Below, piece by piece: positions 16,187-32,000 of a stretch of 32,000 bases of DNA. A program made the position numbers and the translations under genes. Below the pieces are notes generated by a model. That model did not search any database and was not told the DNA's origin. It saw only the letters and a list, made by a program, of their open reading frames with translations. Positions within the stretch are counted from its first letter, which is position 1. Each line of letters opens with the position of its first letter. Source of the DNA: Methylophaga frappieri (GTDB taxonomy: Bacteria > Pseudomonadota > Gammaproteobacteria > Nitrosococcales > Methylophagaceae); NCBI RefSeq assembly GCF_000260965.1, contig NC_017856.1, positions 1,500,001 through 1,532,000 on the forward strand. Reading direction: 5' to 3'.

Positions 16187-18871
16187 ATGTCCTGTTACCG
16201 CCGCTTTCTGTTGTGTCTGTTGCTTGTCTTGCCAGGCTCTTTGCTGGCAGTCGAGGAAAGTCGAACGCTGACACCGGTGACCGTCAAACTGCACTGGCTT
16301 CATCAATTTCAGTTTGCTGGCATATACGCTGCCATCGAAGCGGGTTACTATCGTGATGCCGGGCTGAATGTCACTATCGAAACCGCTTGGGAACCGCCTC
16401 ATGATGAAGTAGAAAGCGGTGAAGTTGAGTTTGGTTTTTCTGGTGCCGGGCTGGTTGTCGAACGCCTTAACGGACGCCCTTTTGTGGCGCTAGCTGCCAT
16501 TTTCCAACGCAGTCCTTATACCTGGCTGGTGCTCGCTGAGAGTTCAATTGAAGAACCCACCGACTTTATTGGCAAAACCGTCACGCGACATTCCTCGGTA
16601 GATGATTTGTCAGCCATCCTCTGGCAGCAGAATATCGACACCACGAAAATTAACTTTGTGCCACGCCAACCAAACGATCTGCAACGCCTTATTGCCGGGG
16701 AGATAGATATTTTGCCAGCTTATGTTTCCAACGAACCTTATTATCTGGAACAGCGGAATATCGCTTATCGGGCTATCTCCCCCCATGACTTTGATATTAA
16801 TTTTTACAGCGATATTCTGTTTACCAGTGAGCAGTTTTTACGTGAGTCGCCAGAAATCGTCGCTGCTTTTCATCGGGCAACACTGCAAGGCTGGGAAGAT
16901 GCCCTGAACTATCCTGACGCCGTTATTGACACTATCCTGCGTAATTACAACACGCAACAGAAGACACGTGCCCACCTCTACTACGAAGCGAACGCATTAA
17001 AATCTCTCAGCCTTTATCCTATGGTGGAGATTGGTCATATGACACTGGCTCGATGGCAGGCCATCGCAGATTATTATCAAAAACAAGGCGTCGTGAATAA
17101 TAGCCAGCCGCTGGCTGGATTTCTGTATGAGCCGCCCTCAGAAAGGGATGTGACCGCTTGGCAATGGGGCTTGCTGTTATTAGCTCTGATCGCCATCATG
17201 GCCTTACTCGGTTTTCATCTAAAACGCCGTCACAGTTTACTTCTGAAAAGTCAGGTGGCCGAAAAAACTGCGGCGCTGGCGCAGGAATTACAACATCGAA
17301 AAACACTCGAAAATTATGCCAAACGTGAAGGAGAACGATTAAAAACCGTACTGGATAATACTCAGGACGGCGTCATCACGATCGATGCCAGTGGCAAAAT
17401 TAGCCATTTTAATCAAGCCGCATCCACTTTGTTTGGCTATCAACCTGATGATGTCATTGGCAAAAACATCACCATGTTAATGCCGGCGACTTTTCGTCAT
17501 CAACATGAACAGGGAATGCTGCGTTTTCTGCAACATGGCGAATCAAACGTGATTGGTTCAGCAGTGCAAGTTGAGGCGTTGCATAAGAGTGGTCAGACAA
17601 TCCCGATTGAGCTGACACTCAGTGCCTATCAATGGGAGTCACAATACTTTTTTACCGGTATCGCTCGCGATATCTCTTTGCGACAGGCGGAACATCAAGC
17701 TTTGATTACCGCCAAGGAGGAAGCAGAAAAAGCCAATCAGGCCAAGTCAGAATTTCTCTCGGCCATGAGTCATGAGCTGAGAACGCCATTAAATGCCATC
17801 ATGGGCTTTGCCCAACTGCTAAAAATGGATATCCAGAATCAACTTTCAGCAGAGCAAAGCAGCCACCTTGATATTATTTTGCAAAGCGGTTCGCATCTTG
17901 CCAAATTGATCAATGATGTTCTGGAATTGTCGCGCATCGAGTCCGGCAATCTTGATGTTACTCTGGTGCCCGTGAATGTCAGTCAGGTGATTGAGGACTG
18001 TTTGCCTTTTTTGCAAACGTTGGCGCATGACAACAGCATCCAAATTGATATCCCGCCCGCGACTAATCATTGGGTCAAGGCGGATGCAACCCGGCTGAAA
18101 CAGGTGATGATTAATCTGCTCAGCAACGCGATTAAATACAACCGGCCACAGGGCATGGTCAGTATCAGTCTGGATGAACTCTCAGACAACCAGATCTTGC
18201 GAATCACCATTACCGATACCGGGATAGGCATTCCAAAACAGCTTCAAACACGTTTATTTACTGCATTTGATCGGCTTGGTCAGGATGCCTCCGGCATTGA
18301 AGGTAGCGGTGTTGGACTGGTAGTAACCCAACGTCTGATTGAGGCTATGCAAGGGCGTATTGGGTTTGATAGCCGCGAAGGTGAAGGCAGTCGCTTTTGG
18401 CTTGATTTGGCATTGATGCAAACCAAGATGACGCCGTCACCAGCGCCTGTCGACACTGAATCCTTGCCAGAAATCCAGTCAAGTCAGTCTGTGCCTGGTG
18501 GCAAAACCATGACCGTACTGTATGTCGAAGATAACCCGGCCAATATACAACTCATGCAAGCGTATTTCCGCCAGCATTCACACTGTGTCATGCATAGCTG
18601 TAAAACTGCCGAAACGGCATTACAGGCAATTACCACACTAAAACCAGAATTAATTTTGATTGATATTAATTTACCTGGCATGAATGGCTTGGAAGCAACC
18701 CGTCAGATTCGGCAAATGCCGGGGATGAAACCCGTCCCTATTGTTGCCATCACCGCCGCTGCCATGCCGCATGAACAACAACGTGCCAGCGGCTTGTTTG
18801 ATGCCTATTTAACCAAACCACTCAATTTCAATGAGTTGGATATTTTTTTACAAAATAACCTGTCCCCATAA
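16187..18871 (+). CDS. Hybrid sensor histidine kinase/response regulator with periplasmic solute-binding-like (NMT1/SsuA-type) sensor, PAS, HisKA, HATPase and REC domains
   Basis: Signal/TM segment, then an SBP-like region (VKLHWLHQFQFAGIYAAIEAGYYRDAGLNV), then a second TM (LLLLALIAIMALLGF). A PAS domain (GVITIDASGKISHFNQAAS) and H-box SHELRTPLN follow. N/G boxes (LLSNAIKYN, DTGIGI, GSGVGL) and a receiver (LILIDINLPGMNG...LTKP) complete it. Confidence 0.9.
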   Translation: MSCYRRFLLCLLLVLPGSLLAVEESRTLTPVTVKLHWLHQFQFAGIYAAIEAGYYRDAGLNVTIETAWEPPHDEVESGEVEFGFSGAGLVVERLNGRPFVALAAIFQRSPYTWLVLAESSIEEPTDFIGKTVTRHSSVDDLSAILWQQNIDTTKINFVPRQPNDLQRLIAGEIDILPAYVSNEPYYLEQRNIAYRAISPHDFDINFYSDILFTSEQFLRESPEIVAAFHRATLQGWEDALNYPDAVIDTILRNYNTQQKTRAHLYYEANALKSLSLYPMVEIGHMTLARWQAIADYYQKQGVVNNSQPLAGFLYEPPSERDVTAWQWGLLLLALIAIMALLGFHLKRRHSLLLKSQVAEKTAALAQELQHRKTLENYAKREGERLKTVLDNTQDGVITIDASGKISHFNQAASTLFGYQPDDVIGKNITMLMPATFRHQHEQGMLRFLQHGESNVIGSAVQVEALHKSGQTIPIELTLSAYQWESQYFFTGIARDISLRQAEHQALITAKEEAEKANQAKSEFLSAMSHELRTPLNAIMGFAQLLKMDIQNQLSAEQSSHLDIILQSGSHLAKLINDVLELSRIESGNLDVTLVPVNVSQVIEDCLPFLQTLAHDNSIQIDIPPATNHWVKADATRLKQVMINLLSNAIKYNRPQGMVSISLDELSDNQILRITITDTGIGIPKQLQTRLFTAFDRLGQDASGIEGSGVGLVVTQRLIEAMQGRIGFDSREGEGSRFWLDLALMQTKMTPSPAPVDTESLPEIQSSQSVPGGKTMTVLYVEDNPANIQLMQAYFRQHSHCVMHSCKTAETALQAITTLKPELILIDINLPGMNGLEATRQIRQMPGMKPVPIVAITAAAMPHEQQRASGLFDAYLTKPLNFNELDIFLQNNLSP

Positions 18872-21906: not shown

Positions 21907-23484
21907 ATGAGCAGCAATATTCACGATCACCGCATCCTCATCCTGGATTTTGGTTCGCAATACACGCAATTAATCGCCCGCCGCATTCGCGAAGCGGGCG
22001 TTTATTGTGAGTTACGCAACCCGGAAATGTCTGAAGCGGAAATTCGTGCGTTTAATCCCAGGGGCATCATTCTTTCTGGCGGCCCCGACTCCACCATTGG
22101 TGACGCTGCGCCGAGTGCGCCACAATGTGTTTTTGAACTGGGACTGCCAGTTTTAGGCATCTGCTACGGCATGCAAACCATGGCACAACAATTGGGCGGA
22201 CAGGTGGAATCATCCGCTCATCGCGAATTTGGTTATGCCCGTATTCGCGCGCGTGGCCATTCCGAACTGCTCCGTGAGATTGAAGATCATACGACAACCG
22301 AAGGCTGGGGCATGCTGGATGTGTGGATGAGCCATGGTGATCGCGTTGCCAGTTTGCCGGAAGGCTTTAAGGTGATAGCAAGTACAGATAGCGCGCCAAT
22401 TGCCGGTATGGCGAATGAATCGCGTCGGTTCTACGGTGTACAGTTTCACCCAGAGGTCACCCACACCACCCAGGGACAACGCATGATTGAGCGTTTCCTG
22501 ATTGATATCTGTGGCTGTGAAACCTTGTGGACCTCTGCCAATATCATCGAAGACAGTATTGCTGCCATTCGCGAACAAGTGGGCGATGACGAAGTGTTAT
22601 TGGGTTTGTCAGGTGGTGTTGACTCCTCGGTTGTAGCAGCATTACTGCATAAAGCGATTGGTGATCAACTGACCTGTGTCTTTGTTGATAACGGTCTGCT
22701 GCGTCAAAACGAAGGCGATCAGGTCATGGCCATGTTTGCCAAACACATGGGCATTCGTGTGATCCGCGCTGATGCCGAAGATCGTTTCCTCAACGCTTTG
22801 GAAGGCATCGATGATCCGGAACAAAAACGCAAAATCATCGGCAATAAGTTTGTCGACATTTTTGATGAAGAAGCCGCCAAACTGAAAAACGTCAAATGGC
22901 TGGCCCAAGGCACGATTTACCCGGATGTAATCGAGTCTGCCGCCGCAAAAACCGGTAAAGCGCATGTGATCAAAACACACCATAACGTCGGTGGATTGCC
23001 TGAGCACATGAAACTCAAACTGGTCGAACCATTACGCGAATTATTTAAAGACGAAGTCCGTAAACTCGGCGTCGAACTCGGTTTACCTTCAGACATGGTT
23101 TATCGTCACCCTTTCCCTGGCCCGGGTCTTGGCGTCAGAATTCTGGGTGAAGTGAAAAAAGAATTCGCCGACTTATTACGCAAAGCCGATCAAATCTTCA
23201 TCGCAGAATTACGCAAACACGACCTATATGACAAAACCAGTCAGGCATTTGCTGTCTTTCTGCCGGTGAAATCCGTCGGTGTAATGGGTGATGGCCGCCG
23301 TTATGATTATGTTGTGTCACTGCGTGCCGTGGAAACGATCGACTTTATGACCGCACGCTGGGCTAACTTGCCATACGATTTTCTGGATCTGGTTTCACGC
23401 CGCATCATTAATGAAACTGCCGGTATTTCACGGGTGGTCTACGACATTTCCGGCAAACCGCCTGCCACTATCGAGTGGGAATGA
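21907..23484 (+). CDS. guaA: Glutamine-hydrolysing GMP synthase
   Basis: GATase domain ([24 protein letters not shown]), ATP-PPase P-loop SGGVDSSV and the C-terminal end ...[12 protein letters not shown] 21907 is preferred over TTG 21886. Confidence 0.97.
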
Positions 23485-23531
23485 TTCCACGTCTGGCACT
23501 GGCTGGCATTCACAAGCAGTAAACCTCTATT

Positions 23532-23560
23532 AACCCATTGATATCAATGGGTTTTTCTTT
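23532..23560 (+). terminator. Rho-independent terminator downstream of guaA
   Basis: AACCCATTGA-ta-TCAATGGGTT perfect palindrome followed by TTTTCTTTATTTTT. Confidence 0.7.
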
Positions 23561-23611
23561 ATTTTTCCTGGCAATGTCAGGCACTCCCTAGCACCCTCAA
23601 GCAAACTTTTT

Positions 23612-23766
23612 TCATGGTATTTTTGATGGTATTGTTCGAGCTGATACCGCGACCTCAAAGAAATACCATGCCATGAATTTTGGAGTAGTCATGGTATCGA
23701 AAATCACTAACATGCTGATATTAAAGGAAATATAGGCGAAAAATACGGCATGTTTGATCATGGTAT
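23612..23766. repeat. Five copies of ATGGTAT (four direct, one inverted) upstream of int; candidate arm-type integrase/RDF binding sites
   Basis: ATGGTAT occurs at 23614-23620, 23626-23632, 23691-23697 and 23760-23766. The inverted copy ATACCAT is at 23663-23669. Three copies share the extended form TCATGGTAT. Confidence 0.5.
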
Positions 23767-23792
23767 TAAGGACGAGAAAAGGAGGATTAGCC

Positions 23793-24989
23793 ATGCTGAC
23801 CGATACCAAGCTTCGCAACCTGAAACCTCAAGACAAGCTCTACAAGGTCAACGACCGAGACGGCCTTTACGTAGCAGTCACACCGGCAGGGACAATCTCT
23901 TTTAGACATAACTACTCCATCAGCGGCCGTCAGGAGACGTTGACCATCGGTCGATATGGCAGTGGCGGTATCACACTGGCGGAAGCGCGGGAACTGCTGA
24001 GCGAAGCAAAGAAAATGATTGCAGCCGGCAAATCCCCGGCCAGAGAGAAAGCGCGCGACAAATCGCGCGTGAAGGATGCCGAAACATTCGGGGCATGGGC
24101 TGAAAAATGGTTGCGCGGCTATCAGATGGCTGACTCGACACGCGACATGCGTAAATCGGTCTACAATCGTGAGTTGAAAAAGCGCTTCGGCAATCAGAAA
24201 TTATCTGAGATCACACATGAGGATCTCCGGGCAGTGACCGATGCCATCGTGGAAAGAGGAGCGCCAGCAACAGCCGTCCACGCCCGAGAAGTGGTATTAC
24301 AGGTTTATCGGTGGGCGATCGAACGCGGACAGAAAGTTGAAAACCCCGCTGAAATGGTTCGCCCCAACAGTATCGCCAGATTCGAACCCCGAGACCGCGC
24401 CCTGAGTCCTGCCGAAATTGGTCTGATGTATCGGTACATGGATCGAATCGGGACCTCGCCGCAATATAGAGCCGCAATCAAGCTGCTGTTATTGACCATG
24501 GTCAGAAAATCCGAGTTGTCCAACGCCACCTGGGAAGAGATCAATTTTAGCGAGGCACTCTGGACGATCCCGAAACAGCGTATGAAGCGACGAAATCCAC
24601 ATTTGGTGTTTCTGTCTCGCCAGGCACTGGATATCTTTATCGCACTGAAGACCTTTGCCGGTGGCTCTGAATTCGTGCTTCCCTCGCGGTATGATTCCGA
24701 CTTGCCTATGAGTGCAGCGACTTTGAATCGCGTTCTTGCCCTGACGTATCAGGCTGCACAAAAGGATGGTGAACAGCTTGGTAAATTTGGTCCGCACGAT
24801 CTGCGTCGCACAGCCAGCACCTTATTGCATGAAGCAGGCTACAACACTGATTGGATTGAAAAGTGTCTTGCCCATGAGCAGAAAGGAGTAAGGGCAATTT
24901 ACAATAAAGCCGAATACCGGGAGCAACGGGCGGCGATGTTGCAAGACTGGGCTGACATGATTGACGAGTGGACTAGCGTGAAACGTTAA
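23793..24989 (+). CDS. int: P4-type tyrosine integrase (DUF4102 arm-binding N-terminus)
   Basis: The N-terminus MLTDTKLRNLKPQDKLYKVNDRDGLYVAVTPAGTISFRHNY is the typical DUF4102/Arm-DNA-bind_3 opening. C-terminal catalytic motifs are HDLRRTAST, LAHE and IYNKAEY. ATG 23793 follows AAAAGGAGG. Confidence 0.93.
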   Translation: MLTDTKLRNLKPQDKLYKVNDRDGLYVAVTPAGTISFRHNYSISGRQETLTIGRYGSGGITLAEARELLSEAKKMIAAGKSPAREKARDKSRVKDAETFGAWAEKWLRGYQMADSTRDMRKSVYNRELKKRFGNQKLSEITHEDLRAVTDAIVERGAPATAVHAREVVLQVYRWAIERGQKVENPAEMVRPNSIARFEPRDRALSPAEIGLMYRYMDRIGTSPQYRAAIKLLLLTMVRKSELSNATWEEINFSEALWTIPKQRMKRRNPHLVFLSRQALDIFIALKTFAGGSEFVLPSRYDSDLPMSAATLNRVLALTYQAAQKDGEQLGKFGPHDLRRTASTLLHEAGYNTDWIEKCLAHEQKGVRAIYNKAEYREQRAAMLQDWADMIDEWTSVKR

Positions 24990-25221
24990 TGGGGATTCCT
25001 GGCCGGATAGGTTGATCTTCAGACTCTTTGCGCGATTCGATCCACTTTTCCACCTCGGCCAAGTCCCAGGCGACATTGCGGCTTGTCAGCACGATTCTGC
25101 GCGGAAAGTCGCCTCGTTTCTCCATATTGAAGATGGCGCGATCTGAAAGCGGAATCATAGCCAGTAATGTTTTTCGATTGATTAAAGTCTTTCTTGGTCG
25201 AGTAGGGTGTCCGTCATCCAT
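24973..25221 (-). CDS. alpA: AlpA-family phage-type transcriptional regulator/excisionase
   Basis: LINRKTLLAMIPLSDRAIFNMEKRGDFPRRIVLTSRNVAWDLAEVEKWIESRK matches the AlpA (MerR-like winged HTH) pattern. It is convergent with int and overlaps it by 17 nt. Confidence 0.8.
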   Translation of the reverse strand: MDDGHPTRPRKTLINRKTLLAMIPLSDRAIFNMEKRGDFPRRIVLTSRNVAWDLAEVEKWIESRKESEDQPIRPGIPINVSR

Positions 25222-25283
25222 TGCTTCTCACTCTCGCTCCGGACCGCACGTGTCAGAGTCTTAGGCTTGCCAAAAACTAAACG

Positions 25284-25335
25284 TTAGCACCGTGCAAATC
25301 ATTTTGGCAAAAGAGAATGTTTAGCAATGTGATAA
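25284..25335. promoter_or_regulatory. Two TTAGCA-N3-TGCTAA-like palindromes upstream of alpA (candidate repressor operators)
   Basis: TTAGCAccgTGCAAA (25284-25298) and TTAGCAatgTGATAA (25321-25335). Each matches the motif found in the cI/cro intergenic region at 11/12 positions. Confidence 0.5.
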
Positions 25336-25464
25336 ACAATTACTGCATCAGGGTGGGGTGACGGACTTAGGAGTGTTGCCGTGACAGCGTCATTCACCAT
25401 ATTTGCGCTGCATGCGATCACTCGAAATTATTGTTGCTCGTGTCTCTGGGTCCGCTGGGAAAAC

Positions 25465-26139
25465 TCAGACCACCTCCCCCTTGAAGACAATGACTCCACA
25501 GATTGTCGCTTCTTCATCCACTTCGATAATGCGATTCGGCCAGTCAGGGTTGAGTGCCTTCAGGTACTGCTTGCCCTCTTCAATAATTAACTGCTTGAAC
25601 GTGGCTTCATTGGATTCATCGAGTCGAACAACCACGTACTTTCCGTGGTCAGGTGAAACATTGGGGTCAACAAAAATCAGGTCGCCCTCATGAAATTTGG
25701 GTTCCATACTGCTGCCGCGAACCCTAAGTACAAAGGATTCAGGACTACAACACACCGGGCAGGGTAAAAGTTCTGAACCGTAGGCCGGTACGAAACTTTC
25801 AGAAATCTCATACCAGTTTCCCGCTTGGACCCAGGATATCAGCGGGTGGAGACTGCGCAAATCCGGGCCGTCGTGGGCGTTGTGTTCCTCTTGTCTTGCC
25901 CCGTCCGCATGGGGGGTATCCATCCATCCTTGGTCTTTATTCATAGCCTTTTCCAGTTTTTCCGCCAGCTCATCTCCGATAGAGCGGGGCGTTCCTTTTT
26001 TGGTTGGCAGCTGGTTGCGCACCTGGCTGAGGTAGGAGCTATTGGTCCCAGCCGCGCGCGCCAACTTGGCAGCTGACCCCGCTTCGGCAATCAAAACCTC
26101 AAGATTGTGGAGCCGGATCTGGTTAAGTTTTAGCGTCAT
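25465..26139 (-). CDS. CI/LexA-type repressor (XRE HTH + S24 peptidase autocleavage domain)
   Basis: N-terminal HTH (GSAAKLARAAGTNSSYLSQVRN), candidate Ala-Gly cleavage site in PLISWVQAGNW, Ser nucleophile in VRGSSMEP, and Lys in ATFKQL. Confidence 0.9.
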   Translation of the reverse strand: MTLKLNQIRLHNLEVLIAEAGSAAKLARAAGTNSSYLSQVRNQLPTKKGTPRSIGDELAEKLEKAMNKDQGWMDTPHADGARQEEHNAHDGPDLRSLHPLISWVQAGNWYEISESFVPAYGSELLPCPVCCSPESFVLRVRGSSMEPKFHEGDLIFVDPNVSPDHGKYVVVRLDESNEATFKQLIIEEGKQYLKALNPDWPNRIIEVDEEATICGVIVFKGEVV

Positions 26140-26223
26140 GCGAAATACTTTAGCAGATAATTTAGCAGGATGCTAAGCAAAAACGTGGTGCTTGTCGTTG
26201 CCCGATGATTCGCACGGTGCTAA
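26130..26223. promoter_or_regulatory. Operator cluster in the repressor/cro divergent intergenic region
   Basis: Perfect palindrome TTAGCAggaTGCTAA (26162-26176) and near-perfect TTCGCAcggTGCTAA (26209-26223). A weaker copy TTAGCGtcaTGCGAA (26130-26144) overlaps the repressor start codon. There is also an extra half-site TTAGCA at 26150-26155. Confidence 0.55.
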
Positions 26224-26234
26224 TGTTTTTACGC

Positions 26235-26522
26235 ATGGAGCTAAAGGACTTTCTCAAAGTGGCAACCAAGCGGGAGCGGGCCGACGTCGCTGCGGCGTGT
26301 GGCGACTCAGTCTCCTACTTGTATCAGATTGCCGGCCAGCATCGATATGCCAGTCCATTGATGGCGACGCAAATCGAGCATTACACACGTACTGTGGCGG
26401 ACCTTTCGGATGGTCGACTGGAGCCTGTGCCTCGGGCGAGCATGGTTCGACATCCAGAGATTTTCTACGGCGTCGTGCCTGAATCGGGTGCACAAGAAGC
26501 AGGTGGTAACGATGACGCCTGA
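26235..26522 (+). CDS. Cro/YdaS-like small HTH protein, divergent from the repressor
   Basis: MELKDFLKVATKRERADVAAACGDSVSYLYQIAGQHRYASPLMATQIE resembles YdaS/Cro-type HTH proteins. The start is ambiguous (26205, 26223 or 26235). 26235 is preferred because the earlier starts overlap the 26209-26223 operator. Confidence 0.6.
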   Translation: MELKDFLKVATKRERADVAAACGDSVSYLYQIAGQHRYASPLMATQIEHYTRTVADLSDGRLEPVPRASMVRHPEIFYGVVPESGAQEAGGNDDA

Positions 26523-28029
26523 GAGATCGCCATCCGTCCACGAGATCACCCGTGTAGACGTCACTCGTATCCACCATTACTCCCGCAATCCCCGCCGGCA
26601 GCAGAACCCGGAATACGATCGAATAAAGGCGTCGATCCAGGCTGAAGGCCTGGATCAACCATTGGTGCTATCACAGGAGCCGGGGGCTGCTGATTATGTG
26701 CTCCACAGTGGCGGCAATACACGGCTGAGGATACTGAAGGAGCTTTTGGACGAAACCGGCGATGAGCGATTTCGCTGGATCGATTGCGTCGTCAAGCCCT
26801 GGTCGCAGGAGTCCAATGTACTTTTTGCCCACCTCCGGGAAAACGAATTGCGCGGCGGTTTGCCTTTCATCGATAAAGCGTTGGCCGTATTCGAAGCAAA
26901 GTCTCTCCTCGAAAGCGAGATGGAGGTTGAGAGCCTGTCTCAGCGCCAACTGGAAGAGCTGTTCAGAGAGCGAGGTTTCGGGCTCAGCCACAGCATGATT
27001 TCCAAAATGGGATATGCCGTTGAGACCTTGTGGCCATTGATGCCAAAAGCCTTAGCTGCCGGATTGGGTCGACCACAGGTGGAAAAGATCCGAGCCCTTG
27101 AACGCGCTGCCCGAGCGATCTGGGATCGTCGCCAATTGGGGGATAACACCGTCTTCGATGCGATCTTTGCCGAGTTGTGTCGCCGTTATGATGGCGCCGA
27201 ATGGGACATTCAGCCACTGCGCGATGCATTGGAAAATGAGATCGCCGTGGAGTCCGAACTGAATCGCCAGGTGATTCATCTGGAGATGGAGGCACAACTA
27301 TCGGGCCGCGCATTCAGCCTTCCCGCTCATACCGAAGAGGTTACAGAGCCGGGGGCGGACAGGGACCCGGAACACCCGGAGCATTCTGATAGTGGGCCGC
27401 CATCGAATACGACGACATTGGAAAAGCAGCCCGCTGACATCGATTCACCGGCGAGTGGTCATGACAAAAGCAAAGACCAACCGAACATGCCGGCTGAGTT
27501 GACCTCTGCGCCGAATTCCCAAAAAGGTGGTCAGCAAAGAAATCTTGAGGTTTTGCGGAGCCAGTTGTGGGACTGCGCAGTAACCCTGGCGACATCCCAC
27601 GGACTGCACGAGACAGTCATTCATCTGCCGGATCAGGGCTTGGGCTTTCTGCTGATTGATGTGCCTTCACCGGAGCTGCGGGAATCCCTTGACCAGGACA
27701 TGCTGGATTTAGTGTCCGCACTCTGGTGGCAGTTGGCTGCGAGCTCAGAGTTGACCGTCGCTCCCACGGACATTGTCCTGGCCTACCTGGATAAAGACTC
27801 GTCCCTATACCAGGCCTTGGCATCCCATGATGCCGGTCTGCTCTTTGGCAGTGTCTGGACGCCTGATCCCGGCCATCTCAACAGCCAGCTCTGGCAGCAA
27901 TTGAACCCGCCAGACTGGCAGCGTTTGCTGCAAATGATGGAGTCCTACCGGAGCATTAAACGGTTAGCCTTCGATACTGGGGTCGAGCTTTGGGCGCAAC
28001 AAGGAGGTGAAAGCGATGTCGTCCAATAA
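26512..28029 (+). CDS. ICE-type ParB-like N-terminal domain protein (PFGI-1-class ParB / BisD-like)
   Basis: ParB/Srx-type N-terminus (ITRVDVTRIHHYSRNPR...IKASIQAEGLDQPLVL...YVLHSGGNTRLRILKEL), a long acidic/Pro-rich linker and a C-terminal domain. ATG 26512 follows AGGTGG and overlaps the cro-like stop by 11 nt. Confidence 0.85.
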   Translation: MTPERSPSVHEITRVDVTRIHHYSRNPRRQQNPEYDRIKASIQAEGLDQPLVLSQEPGAADYVLHSGGNTRLRILKELLDETGDERFRWIDCVVKPWSQESNVLFAHLRENELRGGLPFIDKALAVFEAKSLLESEMEVESLSQRQLEELFRERGFGLSHSMISKMGYAVETLWPLMPKALAAGLGRPQVEKIRALERAARAIWDRRQLGDNTVFDAIFAELCRRYDGAEWDIQPLRDALENEIAVESELNRQVIHLEMEAQLSGRAFSLPAHTEEVTEPGADRDPEHPEHSDSGPPSNTTTLEKQPADIDSPASGHDKSKDQPNMPAELTSAPNSQKGGQQRNLEVLRSQLWDCAVTLATSHGLHETVIHLPDQGLGFLLIDVPSPELRESLDQDMLDLVSALWWQLAASSELTVAPTDIVLAYLDKDSSLYQALASHDAGLLFGSVWTPDPGHLNSQLWQQLNPPDWQRLLQMMESYRSIKRLAFDTGVELWAQQGGESDVVQ

Positions 28030-28618
28030 GGAAGCCGACCTCACCACCGCCGTGCTGTTGTACGCCATGCGATGTCTGGCAGAGGGGGATCAGCAGGCAT
28101 TGCGCGCCATGAACTTTGGCCCCAAAGAACTGGACGCCCTGAAAGAGATGAATCTGGCCGATCTCTATCGGGCCGATGCACTGCGTGTGCACTGTCTGCA
28201 GATTGGTCTCAATCGTGATGTTTTTTGGCCGATGCTCGATCACCTGCGTCATCAGCGGGAATCTGAGGATCTCCAGCGAACATTGCTGGTCGCGGACGCA
28301 CCGTTAGAGATGATGCAGCAGCTGTTTGGTGTGAGTTCTCGGGAGTACACGCGATGGCGCCGATTGTTGACGCTGGCGCCGGCCGTGGGCCGGCCTCCCG
28401 AACTGAATGAAACCGATACCCACGCGCTCTGGTATGCCTGGCAGGATAAGGTTCAGGCGGATGACAAATCCACATTAACTGCAGAGGACTATCTCGACCT
28501 ACAGCAACAGACAGGCATTGGATTGCGATCGATTTGGGCGCTGGTGCAGCGTTGGGAAACCTACGGTGAGGGAAGCAGTGCCGCGACGTCCGGGCGGGTT
28601 GTCGAGAATGGCCCATGA
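28016..28618 (+). CDS. DUF2857 protein (STY4526/YPO1902 family pathogenicity-island protein; BisC-like)
   Basis: LLYAMRCLAEGDQQALRAMNFGPKELDALKEMNLADLYR...MMQQLFGVSSREYTRWRRLL matches my recollection of this family. ATG 28016 follows AAGGAGGTG and overlaps the ParB-like stop by 14 nt. Confidence 0.75.
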   Translation: MSSNKEADLTTAVLLYAMRCLAEGDQQALRAMNFGPKELDALKEMNLADLYRADALRVHCLQIGLNRDVFWPMLDHLRHQRESEDLQRTLLVADAPLEMMQQLFGVSSREYTRWRRLLTLAPAVGRPPELNETDTHALWYAWQDKVQADDKSTLTAEDYLDLQQQTGIGLRSIWALVQRWETYGEGSSAATSGRVVENGP

Positions 28619-29864
28619 TGCGGATGCGCTGCGACCAGAAACTGTTGCTCTCGACGCTTTAATCAAGGCAACTGTTGCCAAGGTTCGTGCCCAGAGTGAT
28701 CCATCGTTACCGGATGCCATGTTGTTCATGGGGAATTGGCATCAGGCCGTGCCGGCCATGGTCATCCAGGACCCGGTGTTGGAACCCGTCGATAAACTGG
28801 TATGGATGGTTATCATGCTCCATGCCAGAGAGACTGGAGGACGAACGGCGTTTCCCGATTACGATACCATTGCGGCTAAAACTAACGTTTCCTCAACCTC
28901 CACTGTCTCTCGTGCTATTGCCATTCTGCGCTTGACGCGTTGGCTAACGCTGTGTGCCAGAGTGCGTCAAAAAAGCGGCCGTTTCACCGGCAATGTCTAC
29001 AGTCTTCACGATGAACCCCTGCCTCTGGTCGATGCCCTGTACCTGGATGAGTCCTACATGGCATTCGTTACCCAATCCCAGGAGCATCATCACGCCCGCG
29101 TCCGGCGCGTGGCGCAAGCTGTGTTGGAGAGTCTGGATAAGGATATTCAGGAAGGCGAGTCGTTAGGACGGAAGGAGTCAACTATTGAGCGTCGACTGCA
29201 GGCCGCCCAACAATTGTCAGTTTCCAGCGGAAACCACGGCAACAGCGGTCGTTATTTTACCTTTCACGCCGCGACCATCGGGAAACTGAAAAATTCGTCC
29301 GGGGCCTGCGCATCAGCACAATCCGTCCAGGACCAAAATTCAAAGGCGGAGGCTAAGGAACACTACAGTAGTCGTTGTAGTAGTCATTATAAAAAAACAA
29401 CTACAACAACCACTACACAAAATACAAACCATGAAGAGAAAACATTTTCTGAATCCAATCCATCAGTCCCGTCGGTGACAGAGCGAGCGCTGATCTATCC
29501 GCCGCGCTTGTCGGAGAACCAGAAACACCTGGCGGACAGGTATCTTGCCATGATCGATCTTGATGATCGGCAGTTGGTGCTCGACGAACTTCAGGGTCGT
29601 CTGGAGTCTGAGCAAAAAGGCATGAAGCCGGTTTATGACGAGCTGCGATTCTTGCATTCGCTGTGCAAGGCGGCACAACAAGGCGAATTTGTGCCCAACC
29701 TCGGGATCAAGGTGGCCGAGGCAAGACAAGATCGGGCACATCACGTACCACCGCCAGAAAACGAAGAACAGAAAACTAAAGCGGCTGAAGAGCGAGCACG
29801 AAACCAAGCCTATGGGCGTGAGCAGCTGGCCAAGTTACGAGCATCATTGAATATGGATAAATAG
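28608..29864 (+). CDS. STY4528-family pathogenicity-island replication protein (winged-helix N-terminus)
   Basis: VIQDPVLEPVDKLVWMVIMLHARETGGRTAFPDYDTIAAKTNVSSTSTVSRAIAILRLTRWLTL is the typical conserved N-terminal region. ATG 28608 overlaps the upstream stop by 11 nt. The centre has a poly-Thr low-complexity segment. Confidence 0.78.
   Translation: MAHDADALRPETVALDALIKATVAKVRAQSDPSLPDAMLFMGNWHQAVPAMVIQDPVLEPVDKLVWMVIMLHARETGGRTAFPDYDTIAAKTNVSSTSTVSRAIAILRLTRWLTLCARVRQKSGRFTGNVYSLHDEPLPLVDALYLDESYMAFVTQSQEHHHARVRRVAQAVLESLDKDIQEGESLGRKESTIERRLQAAQQLSVSSGNHGNSGRYFTFHAATIGKLKNSSGACASAQSVQDQNSKAEAKEHYSSRCSSHYKKTTTTTTTQNTNHEEKTFSESNPSVPSVTERALIYPPRLSENQKHLADRYLAMIDLDDRQLVLDELQGRLESEQKGMKPVYDELRFLHSLCKAAQQGEFVPNLGIKVAEARQDRAHHVPPPENEEQKTKAAEERARNQAYGREQLAKLRASLNMDK
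29362..29416. repeat. AT-rich inverted repeat / ACTAC-GTAGT pentamer cluster embedded in the STY4528-family gene
   Basis: GTAGTCGTTGTAGTAGT (29368-29384) pairs with ACTACAACAACCACTAC (29400-29416) at 15/17 positions across a 15-nt A-rich loop (cattataaaaaaaca). A further ACTAC-a-GTAGT palindrome lies at 29362-29372. Confidence 0.5.
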
Positions 29865-30042
29865 CGCGACCGCCCGTTATCACACGTGATGTGACATATC
29901 TCCGTCGTTACTTCCCTGCACTGTTTCCACTGGAACCATCTGATCGCAGCAACGCAAAACACTGCACCAGTCGGATGGATATTCCGTGGTGCCATTTTCC
30001 CATTCGTGGATTCATAGCACGTCAGAGTTGATCTTGAAGGGA

Positions 30043-30792
30043 ATGACGCAAATGAATTCAGACGCAGAACAGTCACACGAGAATACAGCTGAAAATCAAA
30101 ACGAGTCAGTGCCAGGCGCCCTGCAGGGTGAAGTCTGGTTGACGATTCAGACCTATCAGGCTCAGAGCCTGATCCGCGGCCGCCGTGCAGCCGATGGCAA
30201 GCCTGCCATTATGGGATTGATCGGTTTTGCAGATCGGCTGAAGTCGCTATGGCAGGCCGTCCGCTTCGACGACCCTTATGCCGACTGGTGGTTGCTCAAA
30301 GTGGAAGAGGGCGTTGCCGATATCCGCGCACAGCTGCAGGGATTGCAGCAAAGGATGGACGCCCTTATCACTGAATCCAACAGTGCTCTCGAATTCAGCG
30401 TCGCACAATCGAGTCGACCACAGCGCGTATCGTTACAGTTCGCCAATCCCTACGCCTTCCGCGCTGCACAGTTGCTGGGTGAGTACGACCGGTTGATGTG
30501 CGCAGACATGACGTTGCATTACTTAGGTCTCGACATGCCCACTGACCTCATTGAGCAGGTGTCGGGTAGTGGGCGATGGGTGCGCCGGGTGTTTGCGTTG
30601 CCCCAGGGGTATCACTGCCTGGACGTTCGTCGCTCCGATATCCGGCAAGGAACACCGGCAGCCATCAAAGCGAGAGAGCGGATGGGCGAGATTCCCCAGG
30701 ACATCCTCAATGGTGAGCGGTTGCCGTCTCTGCGTCCCCTGGCATTTCAACAGCTGAATAACAACGCCATCGCAGATTCTGACGAGGGCTGA
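30043..30792 (+). CDS. PFL_4669-family integrating conjugative element protein (TIGR03761-like)
   Basis: The position after the STY4528-family gene, and sequence such as AIMGLIGFADRLKSLWQAVRFDDPYADWWLLKVEEG, fit my recollection of this ICE family. ATG 30043 follows AAGGGA. The track start GTG 29986 is less likely. Confidence 0.7.
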   Translation: MTQMNSDAEQSHENTAENQNESVPGALQGEVWLTIQTYQAQSLIRGRRAADGKPAIMGLIGFADRLKSLWQAVRFDDPYADWWLLKVEEGVADIRAQLQGLQQRMDALITESNSALEFSVAQSSRPQRVSLQFANPYAFRAAQLLGEYDRLMCADMTLHYLGLDMPTDLIEQVSGSGRWVRRVFALPQGYHCLDVRRSDIRQGTPAAIKARERMGEIPQDILNGERLPSLRPLAFQQLNNNAIADSDEG

Positions 30793-30797
30793 ACGCC

Positions 30798-31193
30798 GTG
30801 GCCACCAGCACGCTTCAGCAGCTTGTCATCTCGCTCGATACGCGAATTCCACTCGAAGCGATGGTGCTTCAGCGTTTACGCCGCCTGCCTAACAGCAGAC
30901 AAAACGAGTGGTTGCGGCAGCTGTTGCTGGTGGGATTTCGAAGCGAGTGTCAGGCCATCCGATCTGAGCAAGCGCTGCCGGCACACGCAATGCCTATGAG
31001 CCAGCCGTGTACATCCACCCAGATAAACGGAAGTCGCGGAGCGGGTTCCGTCCAGCCGCGAACAACCGAGACGATGCTCGATCACGCTGCGCGGTCACCT
31101 GGCAGCTCACACAACAGCGAACGCGCCAGGCTTGCTCCCCCAAACGACACCAGAAAACCCTTTACGCACCTGAGACGAGTGATCGGTGAGTAA
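30798..31193 (+). CDS. Hypothetical protein, possible ribbon-helix-helix N-terminus with disordered tail
   Basis: 131-aa GTG-start ORF. The N-terminus QQLVISLDTRIPLEAMVLQRLRRLPNSRQNEWLRQLLLVGF has a beta-alpha-alpha pattern and the C-terminal half is S/P/R/T-rich. I recognise no family. Confidence 0.4.
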   Translation: MATSTLQQLVISLDTRIPLEAMVLQRLRRLPNSRQNEWLRQLLLVGFRSECQAIRSEQALPAHAMPMSQPCTSTQINGSRGAGSVQPRTTETMLDHAARSPGSSHNSERARLAPPNDTRKPFTHLRRVIGE

Positions 31194-31225
31194 AGACGTC
31201 TAACCCCGATATCAGGAATCGCACC

Positions 31226-32000
31226 ATGACAGAACTGACCGATGAGAAATTTTCTGACGAAGACAAACCTCCCGTGACCACTCATCCCATGGCGGTTGGG
31301 CAGGTGGGTCTCGATGACGGCTATGCCTATACCAAAGTGGCGTTACCGGATGGTCGCCTCCTGGCGGTGCCTTCGCGGGCACGCATGGGATCGGCCGGTG
31401 TCACCTGGATACGGGATGAGGAACAGAAAATTTTTGAGTACGAAACCGGTGGCAGTGTGTATTCCGTCGGTGCGGTCGATGGTGAGCCCACTCAATTCGA
31501 TGAATACCCGGGCTCGGCCCTGAATCGGGTGATCGTCCAGCATGCACTGCAACAGGCGGGTTTGTCGGGCCGATCCGTCCATGTGGTGACGGGGTTGCCG
31601 GTCTCCGCCTTTTACCGCAACGATGGTCAGCAACGACGACGAGCGATCCAGGCAAAAAGGGAGGGTTTGAAATTGGCGGTTGAGCCTGTTGTTGCCAGAA
31701 AAGCATCGCAAAGGGCAGCGCAACAGGGGCTCCTAAAGGTGAGCATCGCCTTTCATGAAGTTATTCCGGAGGCGCTGGCTGCCTGGTACGACTATGTGAT
31801 TGTTATGACCGATGATGATGGTGTGACGTTGGACGCGGATCGGGTCAACGCGCCCATCGCCATTGTCGATATCGGTGGCCGCACCACGGATTATGTGGTG
31901 GTCCAGGACCAGGGCATTGTGCATGGTTCCTCCGGCTCTCTGAATCGCGGCATGCTGAACGTCAAGATTCGCGTGGCGAACCGTATACAGGAACAGTTCG
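31226..32000 (+). CDS. ParM/StbA-family actin-like segregation ATPase (5' partial, runs off the window)
   Basis: I translated this by hand from ATG 31226 and found no stop through 32000, which is why it is absent from the ORF track. Actin-fold phosphate motifs are VGLDDGYAYTK and IAIVDIGGRTTDY, plus VVTGLPVSAF. Confidence 0.85.
   Translation, partial: MTELTDEKFSDEDKPPVTTHPMAVGQVGLDDGYAYTKVALPDGRLLAVPSRARMGSAGVTWIRDEEQKIFEYETGGSVYSVGAVDGEPTQFDEYPGSALNRVIVQHALQQAGLSGRSVHVVTGLPVSAFYRNDGQQRRRAIQAKREGLKLAVEPVVARKASQRAAQQGLLKVSIAFHEVIPEALAAWYDYVIVMTDDDGVTLDADRVNAPIAIVDIGGRTTDYVVVQDQGIVHGSSGSLNRGMLNVKIRVANRIQEQF

Follow-up and report, generated by a model that had tools for sequence, protein, structure and literature searches.

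The DNA analyzed here is a 32,000-nucleotide stretch of the Methylophaga frappieri genome (contig NC_017856.1, positions 1,500,001 to 1,532,000), which we call the window and whose own coordinates are used throughout. It contains one end of a putative integrative and conjugative element (ICE), in which the gene for an S24-family repressor lies between an alpA gene on the same strand and a divergent cro-like gene. An earlier note on this DNA had described five copies of a palindrome, TTAGCA-N3-TGCTAA, and an extra half-site around the repressor gene, and had proposed that a single regulator acts on both of its sides. All five copies and the half-site were found again, with positions and match counts unchanged. 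The features of this region are as follows.

24973..25221, minus strand: alpA, encoding an AlpA-family small winged-helix regulator and putative recombination directionality factor (Pfam PF05930, E 3e-11)
25281..25310, minus strand: predicted alpA promoter, with −35 TTGCCA (25310-25305), an 18-nt spacer and the TG-extended −10 TGcTAACGT
25284-25298: predicted promoter-proximal leftward operator, TTAGCACCGTGCAAA, 11/12 matches, over the spacer and −10 of the alpA promoter, centre about −17
25321-25335: predicted distal leftward operator, TTAGCAATGTGATAA, 11/12 matches, 37 bp upstream of the proximal one, centre about −54
25465..26139, minus strand: gene for a lambda-cI-like repressor of 224 aa (Pfam Peptidase_S24 PF00717, E 1e-27), with a putative N-terminal helix-turn-helix (…GTNSSYLSQVRNQ…)
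26130-26144: weak candidate operator, TTAGCGTCATGCGAA, 10/12 matches, over the repressor start codon (26139-26137) and predicted transcription start
26147..26155, minus strand: TG-extended −10 of the predicted repressor promoter, TGCTAAAGT, 7 nt before the ATG and including the half-site at 26150-26155
26162-26176: predicted central operator, TTAGCAGGATGCTAA, a perfect 12/12 palindrome over the −35 region of the repressor promoter and near −65 of the rightward promoter
26198..26226, plus strand: predicted rightward (cro-like) promoter, with −35 TTGCCC (26198-26203), a 17-nt spacer and the TG-extended −10 TGcTAATGT
26209-26223: predicted promoter-proximal rightward operator, TTCGCACGGTGCTAA, 11/12 matches, over the spacer and −10 of the cro-like promoter, centre about −18
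26235..26522, plus strand: gene for a cro-like small protein of 95 aa with a putative YdaS/Cro-type helix-turn-helix (…DSVSYLYQIAG…); it opens the rightward operon

With up to two mismatches allowed, the motif matched six times in the 32-kb window against 1.48 expected, and none of 100 dinucleotide-preserving shuffles reached six. Five of the six matches are packed into 940 bp; the sixth, at 17890, lies outside this cluster and was taken as a chance match. The two sites near alpA are 63-114 bp upstream of its ATG (25221, minus strand), in agreement with the 60-115 bp given earlier, and the weak copy does span the start codon of the repressor gene. The copy at 26209-26223 had been placed between the divergent genes, and it is indeed intergenic because translation of the cro-like gene begins with the ATG at 26235 (MELK..., present in every homologue) and not at 26205. 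Base composition might suggest that an AT-rich palindrome clustered by chance in intergenic DNA that is itself AT-rich, both intergenic regions having 44-48% GC vs 54% across the element, but the shuffles refute this together with the position-specific enrichment in relatives given below. The probability of a chance cluster is close to nil, and the earlier view that such recurrence is unlikely by chance stands. A host LexA box was also dismissed, as the motif is unlike CTGT-N8-ACAG, the generally known form of that box.

For comparative footprinting, 80 loci were drawn from species-representative genomes by alignment of repressor homologues, and the 70 with a full repressor gene were analyzed, each locus being scanned whole (~8.6 kb). 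At one mismatch or fewer, these 70 loci held 150 copies of the motif in the 41 kb of two regulatory regions vs two copies in the remaining 524 kb, an enrichment of ~900-fold. The consensus among the related loci was TTA(G/T)CA-N3-TGCTAA, and the two conserved places were the intergenic region between the repressor and cro-like genes and the DNA immediately before a small excisionase-type gene that lies downstream of the repressor gene. Ahead of the repressor gene, the motif had fixed positions at ~84, 37-48 and ~5 nt before the start. The central operator was kept at 34-48 nt in nearly all relatives, mostly as TTATCAnnnTGCTAA, and the site at ~5 nt was kept in many, being a perfect 8-1-8 palindrome (TTTCGCATGATGCGAAA) in two loci (L017 and L024). 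The downstream pair was spaced at 37-38 bp, or 48 bp in some loci. Motif copies were held at both places and almost nowhere else down to repressors of ~45-50% identity. Nearly all motif-bearing loci encoded a repressor with a SYLSQ recognition-helix core, and those with the most divergent recognition helices (L066, L067) had one site or none.

Taken together, these data support the earlier proposal of one regulator for the alpA and rightward promoters, since the motif recurs at both places in relatives. With a probability of about 0.8, the 15-bp palindrome would be the operator of the element's own S24 repressor, silencing the two promoters that flank the repressor gene.

The promoters were read from the sequence and are backed by conservation; a simple promoter and terminator scan did not report the proposed promoters and found no terminator on the minus strand. 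The −10 hexamer of the rightward promoter (26221-26226) is followed by 8 nt to the ATG at 26235, with no Shine-Dalgarno sequence before that ATG. At the alpA promoter, the −10 hexamer is at 25286-25281, and the block TTTATCACnTTGCTAAACATTCTCTTTTGyCAAAAnGATTyGCACnnTGCTAAyGTTT was conserved in 11 relatives with the window-like gene arrangement (type A, see below). A repeat finder reported the two core promoter-operators as a 24-nt inverted repeat (22/24, 92%; left copy 25279-25302) with 902 nt between the copies. In both, the half-site TGCTAA doubles as the extended −10 (TGcTAATGT or TGcTAACGT), and the lone half-site TTAGCA at 26150-26155 is inside the −10 segment of the repressor promoter. Across the related loci, the proximal sites always overlapped a TG-extended −10, TGCTAATGT or TGCTAACGT.

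Such overlap raises the possibility that the recurrence is one of duplicated promoter sequence, with TGCTAAnGT a shared extended −10 and its palindromic partner incidental. Every TGCTAA half-site does continue in a −10-like manner (TGCTAATGT, TGCTAACGT, TGCTAAAGT and TGCTAAATT), and the 22/24 match between the core promoters would fit a duplication. However, the left half of the palindrome (TTAGCA or TTATCA, exactly 3 bp away) was conserved as strongly as the right half and is too near the −10 to serve as a −35, which speaks for a protein that binds as a dimer and against a plain resemblance between promoters. The full palindrome is also kept, where no promoter is needed, at the distal sites (25321-25335 in the window and the upstream sites of every relative), so that we regard this explanation as very improbable.

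The earlier note had further described the 25284 site as bracketed by a 9-bp inverted repeat. This repeat is present (25267-25275, TTGCCAAAA; 25302-25310, TTTTGGCAA), but it is not conserved as such: of its two arms, the one serving as the −35 of the alpA promoter was kept in relatives, the other was not conserved beyond the closest of them, and we did not retain the repeat as a separate element.

The −10 hexamers also lie very close to the start codons. A TAnnnT hexamer 7-8 nt before the cro-like ATG was found in 55 of 57 non-redundant relatives (TG-extended in 44, and one with a Shine-Dalgarno-like motif). Before the repressor start, TAnnnT at 5-8 nt was present in 32 of 47 non-redundant relatives (background 4%), again with a single Shine-Dalgarno-like motif. 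As the −10 hexamer lies so near the start codon and Shine-Dalgarno motifs are nearly absent in relatives, the cro-like mRNA is probably leaderless, and the repressor mRNA probably so in most relatives.

The weak 26130-26144 site is a candidate site for negative autoregulation, although coding constraint could also account for it. A 9/12 motif match at 26230-26244 (TACGCATGGAGCTAA) covers the start codon of the cro-like gene and mirrors the 10/12 site at the repressor start. The rare codon CTA encodes Leu3 both in the cro-like protein and in the window repressor and is retained in most relatives, while CGA, also rare, encodes Arg3 in relatives whose repressors start MKRK or MMRK and is mostly retained. 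These kept rare codons hint at constraint at the DNA level, with coding constraint again a possible cause.

The repressor itself has the features of a self-cleaving S24 protein. Its best match among solved structures was lambda cI (3bdn, E 3e-14), with LexA and UmuD far lower. In 15 homologues down to 67% identity, S144 and K182 were invariant, as was the SSY-SQ-R core of the recognition helix (within the segment …TNSSYLSQVRNQ…), and A106-G107 was nearly invariant (at least 90%); the window repressor thus carries both the Ser-Lys dyad and the Ala-Gly cleavage site of this class. A helix-turn-helix-like, largely invariant N-terminal segment (…AGSAAKLARAAGTNSSYLSQVRNQ…) was recognized by eye. 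We found 1130 homologues of the repressor, while the nearest phage repressors were below 50% identity. The protein was 100% identical in nine of the related loci (L001-L008 and L070), in hosts that include Alcanivorax nanhaiticus, Porticoccus litoralis, Oceanobacter antarcticus and metagenome-assembled genomes of Sedimenticola and Halieaceae, and 99% identical in L009 (Haliea salexigens). Full identity in different genera indicates, at the level of sequence comparison, a recent spread between genera. In one relative (L016:4001-4783) the repressor gene is ~108 nt longer, owing to what looks like an internal duplication close to where the S24 domain ends at its 3′ side.

Evidence for the nature of the cro-like protein is weak, though concordant. 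Neither Pfam nor NCBIfam gave a match, and its 262 homologues are all unnamed. In a profile search the top solved-structure matches were YdaS, or 'antirepressor Cro', of prophage CP-933P (8co2 and 8c7k, E 0.03-0.05), and an AlphaFold model (pLDDT 76) returned the same two entries at the top of its Foldseek matches (probability 0.75-0.80, TM 0.41-0.49), the structure prediction having been run on database homologues. The name 'cro-like' thus rests on position and on these weak matches of profile and fold. The divergent gene was conserved in most of the 70 loci, with no cro homologue found in L053 and L067.

The sites might be bound mainly or only by this cro-like protein, or by both proteins with different preferences as in lambda, in which case the shared motif would stand for a Cro-type shut-off of the two promoters in place of maintenance repression. 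Its putative helix-turn-helix contains an invariant Y28-L29-Y30-Q31 that resembles SYLSQ of the repressor and of YdaS, an S-Y-L-x-Q recognition-helix motif being common to all three, and the cro-like protein accompanies the motif in almost all loci. However, wherever it is encoded the repressor is too, and the two cannot be told apart by comparing loci; in L053 the repressor gene is flanked by sites left and right, with no detectable cro homologue; and palindromes of this kind are, by textbook precedent, bound by a dimeric S24 repressor. We consider binding mainly by the cro-like protein unlikely, and more a refinement of repressor control than a contradiction of it. With its similar SYL-x-Q helix, the cro-like protein may bind the palindrome in addition to the repressor.

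On the left-hand side, the target gene is alpA in the window and an HTH_17 or other putative excisionase gene in relatives. The alpA product scored 43.3 bits against PF05930 (cut-off 21) and is ~75% identical to an 'AlpA family phage regulatory protein' in the Protein Data Bank (8c3t, E 2e-29), a code for which a literature search found nothing. In type-A loci, which resemble the window, the downstream operator pair precedes alpA, beside a convergent integrase gene and guaA. In type-B loci, an alpA of ~80% identity directly follows the repressor gene without an operator, and behind it the operator pair fronts an excisionase-type gene with HTH_17, next to the gene for a different integrase. Elsewhere the pair stands before a small gene (HTH_17 in L035, a sub-threshold DUF1233 in L014 and L029, no Pfam match in L044 and L075) and then an integrase gene, which is likely, from gene order, to be an excisionase-integrase operon. 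The motif was also looked for in the alpA promoter region of the genomic island GIsul2, which has an alpA 73% identical to that of the window and no such repressor, and it was not found there.

Because the motif stays when the downstream gene changes, and is absent from GIsul2, its constant partners are the repressor and cro-like pair. In the loci compared, its constant left-hand target is the excisionase-type gene of whichever integration module is present, and control by the repressor of an excisionase-type gene next to the integrase appears, on these arrangements, to be universal across the relatives. Integrase arm sites or attachment sites were rejected as an identity for the motif, which tracks the repressor and not the type of integrase. 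The same comparisons bear on the idea that the sites are AlpA-binding elements through which AlpA regulates its own gene and activates the rightward operon. AlpA-family proteins are DNA-binding regulators and two of the sites sit in the alpA promoter. Against this, the motif was found at the same positions in six loci without an AlpA homologue (L022, L029, L035, L044, L058 and L075), it was absent near the GIsul2 alpA, and in type-B loci it is downstream of alpA and fronts a different gene. We give AlpA as the binder hardly any credence.

Several further observations concern these modules. In ten relatives (L001-L003, L005, L006, L009, L014 and L017-L019; for example L002:4673-5120), an alpA homologue (~80% identical) lies ~30-80 bp behind the repressor gene, has a ribosome-binding site of its own and no operator, and probably shares a transcript with the repressor gene. 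A second excisionase-type gene follows this alpA, being of HTH_17 type in L002 and a putative excisionase followed by an integrase gene in L014; since the operator pair fronts this second gene, AlpA may not be the induced excision factor there. In eight loci (L014, L016, L022, L029, L035, L044, L058 and L075) the module behind the leftward promoter-operator differs in integrase family and target site. The junction of the module swap lies near the promoter and first codons, and several unrelated genes start MDDGY or MDNGY.

Some of the evidence weighs against control of both promoters by the repressor, or limits it. The spacer between the repressor gene and alpA has no terminator-like structure (by the scan, and with a folding z of +1.45), and with no terminator between the two genes, alpA could still be expressed by read-through from the repressor promoter, whatever the operators do. 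The centre of the perfect operator is at about −30 of the predicted repressor promoter in the window vs about −41 in other relatives, and the sign of repressor autoregulation is something we can only infer. As half of the motif coincides with the extended −10, its conservation is in part that of a promoter. No significant Pfam match was obtained for the N-terminal domain of the repressor (YdaS, E 0.18), and BLASTP gave no alignment between that domain and the cro-like protein. Finally, since the type-B alpA has no operator, control of alpA itself by the repressor is not universal.

The surrounding genes place the switch in a larger element. They are as follows.

ends at 23484: guaA
23754..24989, plus strand: P4-type tyrosine integrase gene (Pfam Phage_integrase, Arm-DNA-bind_3 and Phage_int_M), convergent with alpA
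26512..28029, plus strand: gene for an ICE ParB-family protein, the second gene of the rightward operon (NCBIfam TIGR03764 ICE_PFGI_1_parB, E 9e-95)
29986-30792: AcaB/PFL_4669-family gene

The end of the cro-like gene overlaps the start of the parB-like gene, and the rightward operon runs in the order cro-like, parB-like, DUF2857, STY4528-like. The ICE ParB (TIGR03764), PFL_4669 (TIGR03761), STY4528 and DUF2857 families all scored above curated cut-offs. With guaA, the integrase, alpA, the repressor, the cro-like gene and these backbone markers in that order, the element is, by gene content, an ICE of the PFGI-1/pKLC102/SPI-7 class inserted after guaA, and the window shows its guaA-proximal end, stopping at 32000, ~8.5 kb into the element. 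The same integrase gene also adjoins guaA in L004, L008, L010-L013, L024, L025 and other loci. The guaA gene is a recognized hotspot for the insertion of islands that encode a P4-type integrase and AlpA (PMC10386936); one paper flagged for both guaA and SOS islands was set aside, as guaA was there solely a locus for multilocus sequence typing. A megablast search with 23400-32000 gave no plasmid matches, a literature search on this ICE family found no paper, and Rfam returned no match at E up to 1 over 23400-27000, so that an RNA element is not indicated in that interval.

The 3′ ends of the integrase and alpA genes overlap by 17 bp (24973-24989), and a transcript started at the alpA promoter would enter the integrase gene in the antisense direction. 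The stretch from the guaA stop to the start of the integrase gene has three copies of TTTTT(T/G)(C/A)ATGGTATT (23607-23633, 23753-23767), of which the last spans the integrase start codon; judged from sequence and position, they may be attachment-site repeats or arm-type repeats for the integrase. A perfect 15-nt inverted repeat has one arm in the repressor gene (26092-26106, CAAAACCTCAAGATT) and the other in the parB-like gene (27541-27555, AATCTTGAGGTTTTG); both arms encode NLEVL with identical codons, and ~0.01 such pairs would be expected by chance in this stretch.

The arrangement resembles several known switches. As in phage lambda, an S24 repressor of autocleavable type, with a C-terminal domain nearest that of cI, faces a divergent cro-like gene, and several predicted palindromic operators cover the divergent promoters. 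A second cluster beyond the repressor gene, at a leftward promoter co-directional with it that leads to excision functions, corresponds to lambda OL/PL. Lambda cI mRNA from PRM is leaderless, as the repressor mRNA apparently is here. In contrast to lambda, the operator is a 15-bp (6-3-6) palindrome of other sequence, each cluster has two full sites plus weak ones and not three, the clusters are 0.9 kb apart vs 2.3 kb, and the cro-like mRNA also appears to be leaderless. The switch resides in a conjugative element in which no N/Q antitermination genes were seen, and its leftward transcript encodes an AlpA-type protein, with the integrase gene convergent.

Among ICEs, the bacterium Bacillus subtilis carries ICEBs1, whose repressor ImmR represses Pxis directly, regulates itself and is inactivated after DNA damage; ImmR is not self-cleaving, being cut by a separate protease, ImmA. 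The likeness is that of an element-encoded repressor acting on an excisionase/transfer promoter and on its own promoter. ICEBs1 differs in being a Gram-positive element of unrelated backbone with one divergent promoter region, vs the two flanking clusters here. The closest ICE precedent, with a cI-like repressor and a divergent cro-like gene, is SetR/CroS of SXT/R391, where SetR, a repressor cleaved in the SOS response, and a Cro-like counter-repressor act on operators between the divergent genes (PMC5812530). What the SXT repressor controls is croS-setCD, and it is SetCD that in turn activates xis, int and tra (PMC5812530). The SXT excisionase is thus controlled indirectly, whereas control in the present element would be direct, because the excision-factor promoter carries its own operators. 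No setCD genes were found in the window, with none lying within 6 kb, and the backbone has PFGI-1/pKLC102/SPI-7 markers, unlike that of SXT/R391.

The same logic, an autocleaving-type repressor over a gene called alpA, is known from Pseudomonas aeruginosa, where the LexA/cI-like autocleaving repressor AlpR directly represses alpA and DNA damage relieves the repression (PMC7969949). However, the P. aeruginosa AlpA, chains of which are present in cryo-EM complexes (PMC9371919), is a processive antiterminator for lysis genes and not part of an integration module. A phmmer search with the window AlpA, run at E up to 1 on every chain of solved structure, retrieved just two, 8c3t and an unrelated one, and no P. 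aeruginosa AlpA. Since no homology to that protein (PA0907) was detectable, the shared name is probably coincidental. The guaA islands GIsul2 and that of Pseudomonas sp. M1 share insertion after guaA, a P4-type integrase and an AlpA-family gene with the present element. GIsul2 differs in that int and alpA are co-oriented and followed by repA/repC, with no cI-like repressor and no copy of the motif.

The mechanism that we infer, with the S24 repressor as the binding protein, induction by the SOS response and AlpA as the likely excision factor for the adjacent P4-type integrase, would be as follows. In the integrated state, repressor dimers would occupy both clusters and exclude RNA polymerase from the cro-like/parB-like and alpA promoters. 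At the right cluster, one operator would act on the spacer and −10 of the cro-like promoter, the perfect one on the −35 region of the repressor promoter and the weak one at the repressor start. The cro-like/parB-like operon for transfer and maintenance would thereby be kept silent and the repressor would regulate its own gene. At the left cluster, 0.9 kb away, the near-identical promoter-operator would drive alpA, with the second operator 37 bp upstream. After DNA damage, activated RecA (RecA*) would lead the repressor to cleave itself at Ala106-Gly107 and both promoters would be freed at once, so that excision and rightward-operon expression would be coupled. By binding the same sites, the cro-like protein may then lock the induced state. 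It is possible, though we hold this further step to be doubtful, that the 24-nt inverted repeat lets repressor oligomers bridge the two clusters in a 0.9-kb loop enclosing the repressor gene, as between OL and OR of lambda, the whole then forming a compact, portable and coupled switch of SOS type.

In overall design this would be an ordinary lambda-style switch, found in an unstudied family of marine conjugative elements, and its points of interest are modest. As it repeats the logic of lambda and SXT, the gain is one of breadth and of a tractable model, not of a new principle. Its compactness is unusual in that both switch genes are apparently leaderless and an operator half-site forms the extended −10 of each promoter, and the regulatory cassette appears to be retained while integrase and excisionase modules are exchanged. 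The regulation of ICEs of the PFGI-1/pKLC102/SPI-7 class is poorly understood. If our reading is true, this would be the first defined bistable switch of SOS type for PFGI-1/pKLC102-class ICEs, with direct coupling of the excision-factor and transfer-operon promoters in a portable cassette behind which integration modules have been exchanged. On this map, DNA damage would be expected to induce excision and transfer at the same time. Several carriers are culturable, among them Alcanivorax nanhaiticus, Porticoccus litoralis and Oceanobacter antarcticus (repressor 100% identical) and Haliea salexigens (99%), and the analysis thus offers a testable map of operators, promoters and repressor for a family whose repressor has over 1000 homologues in Gammaproteobacteria from marine and sediment sources.

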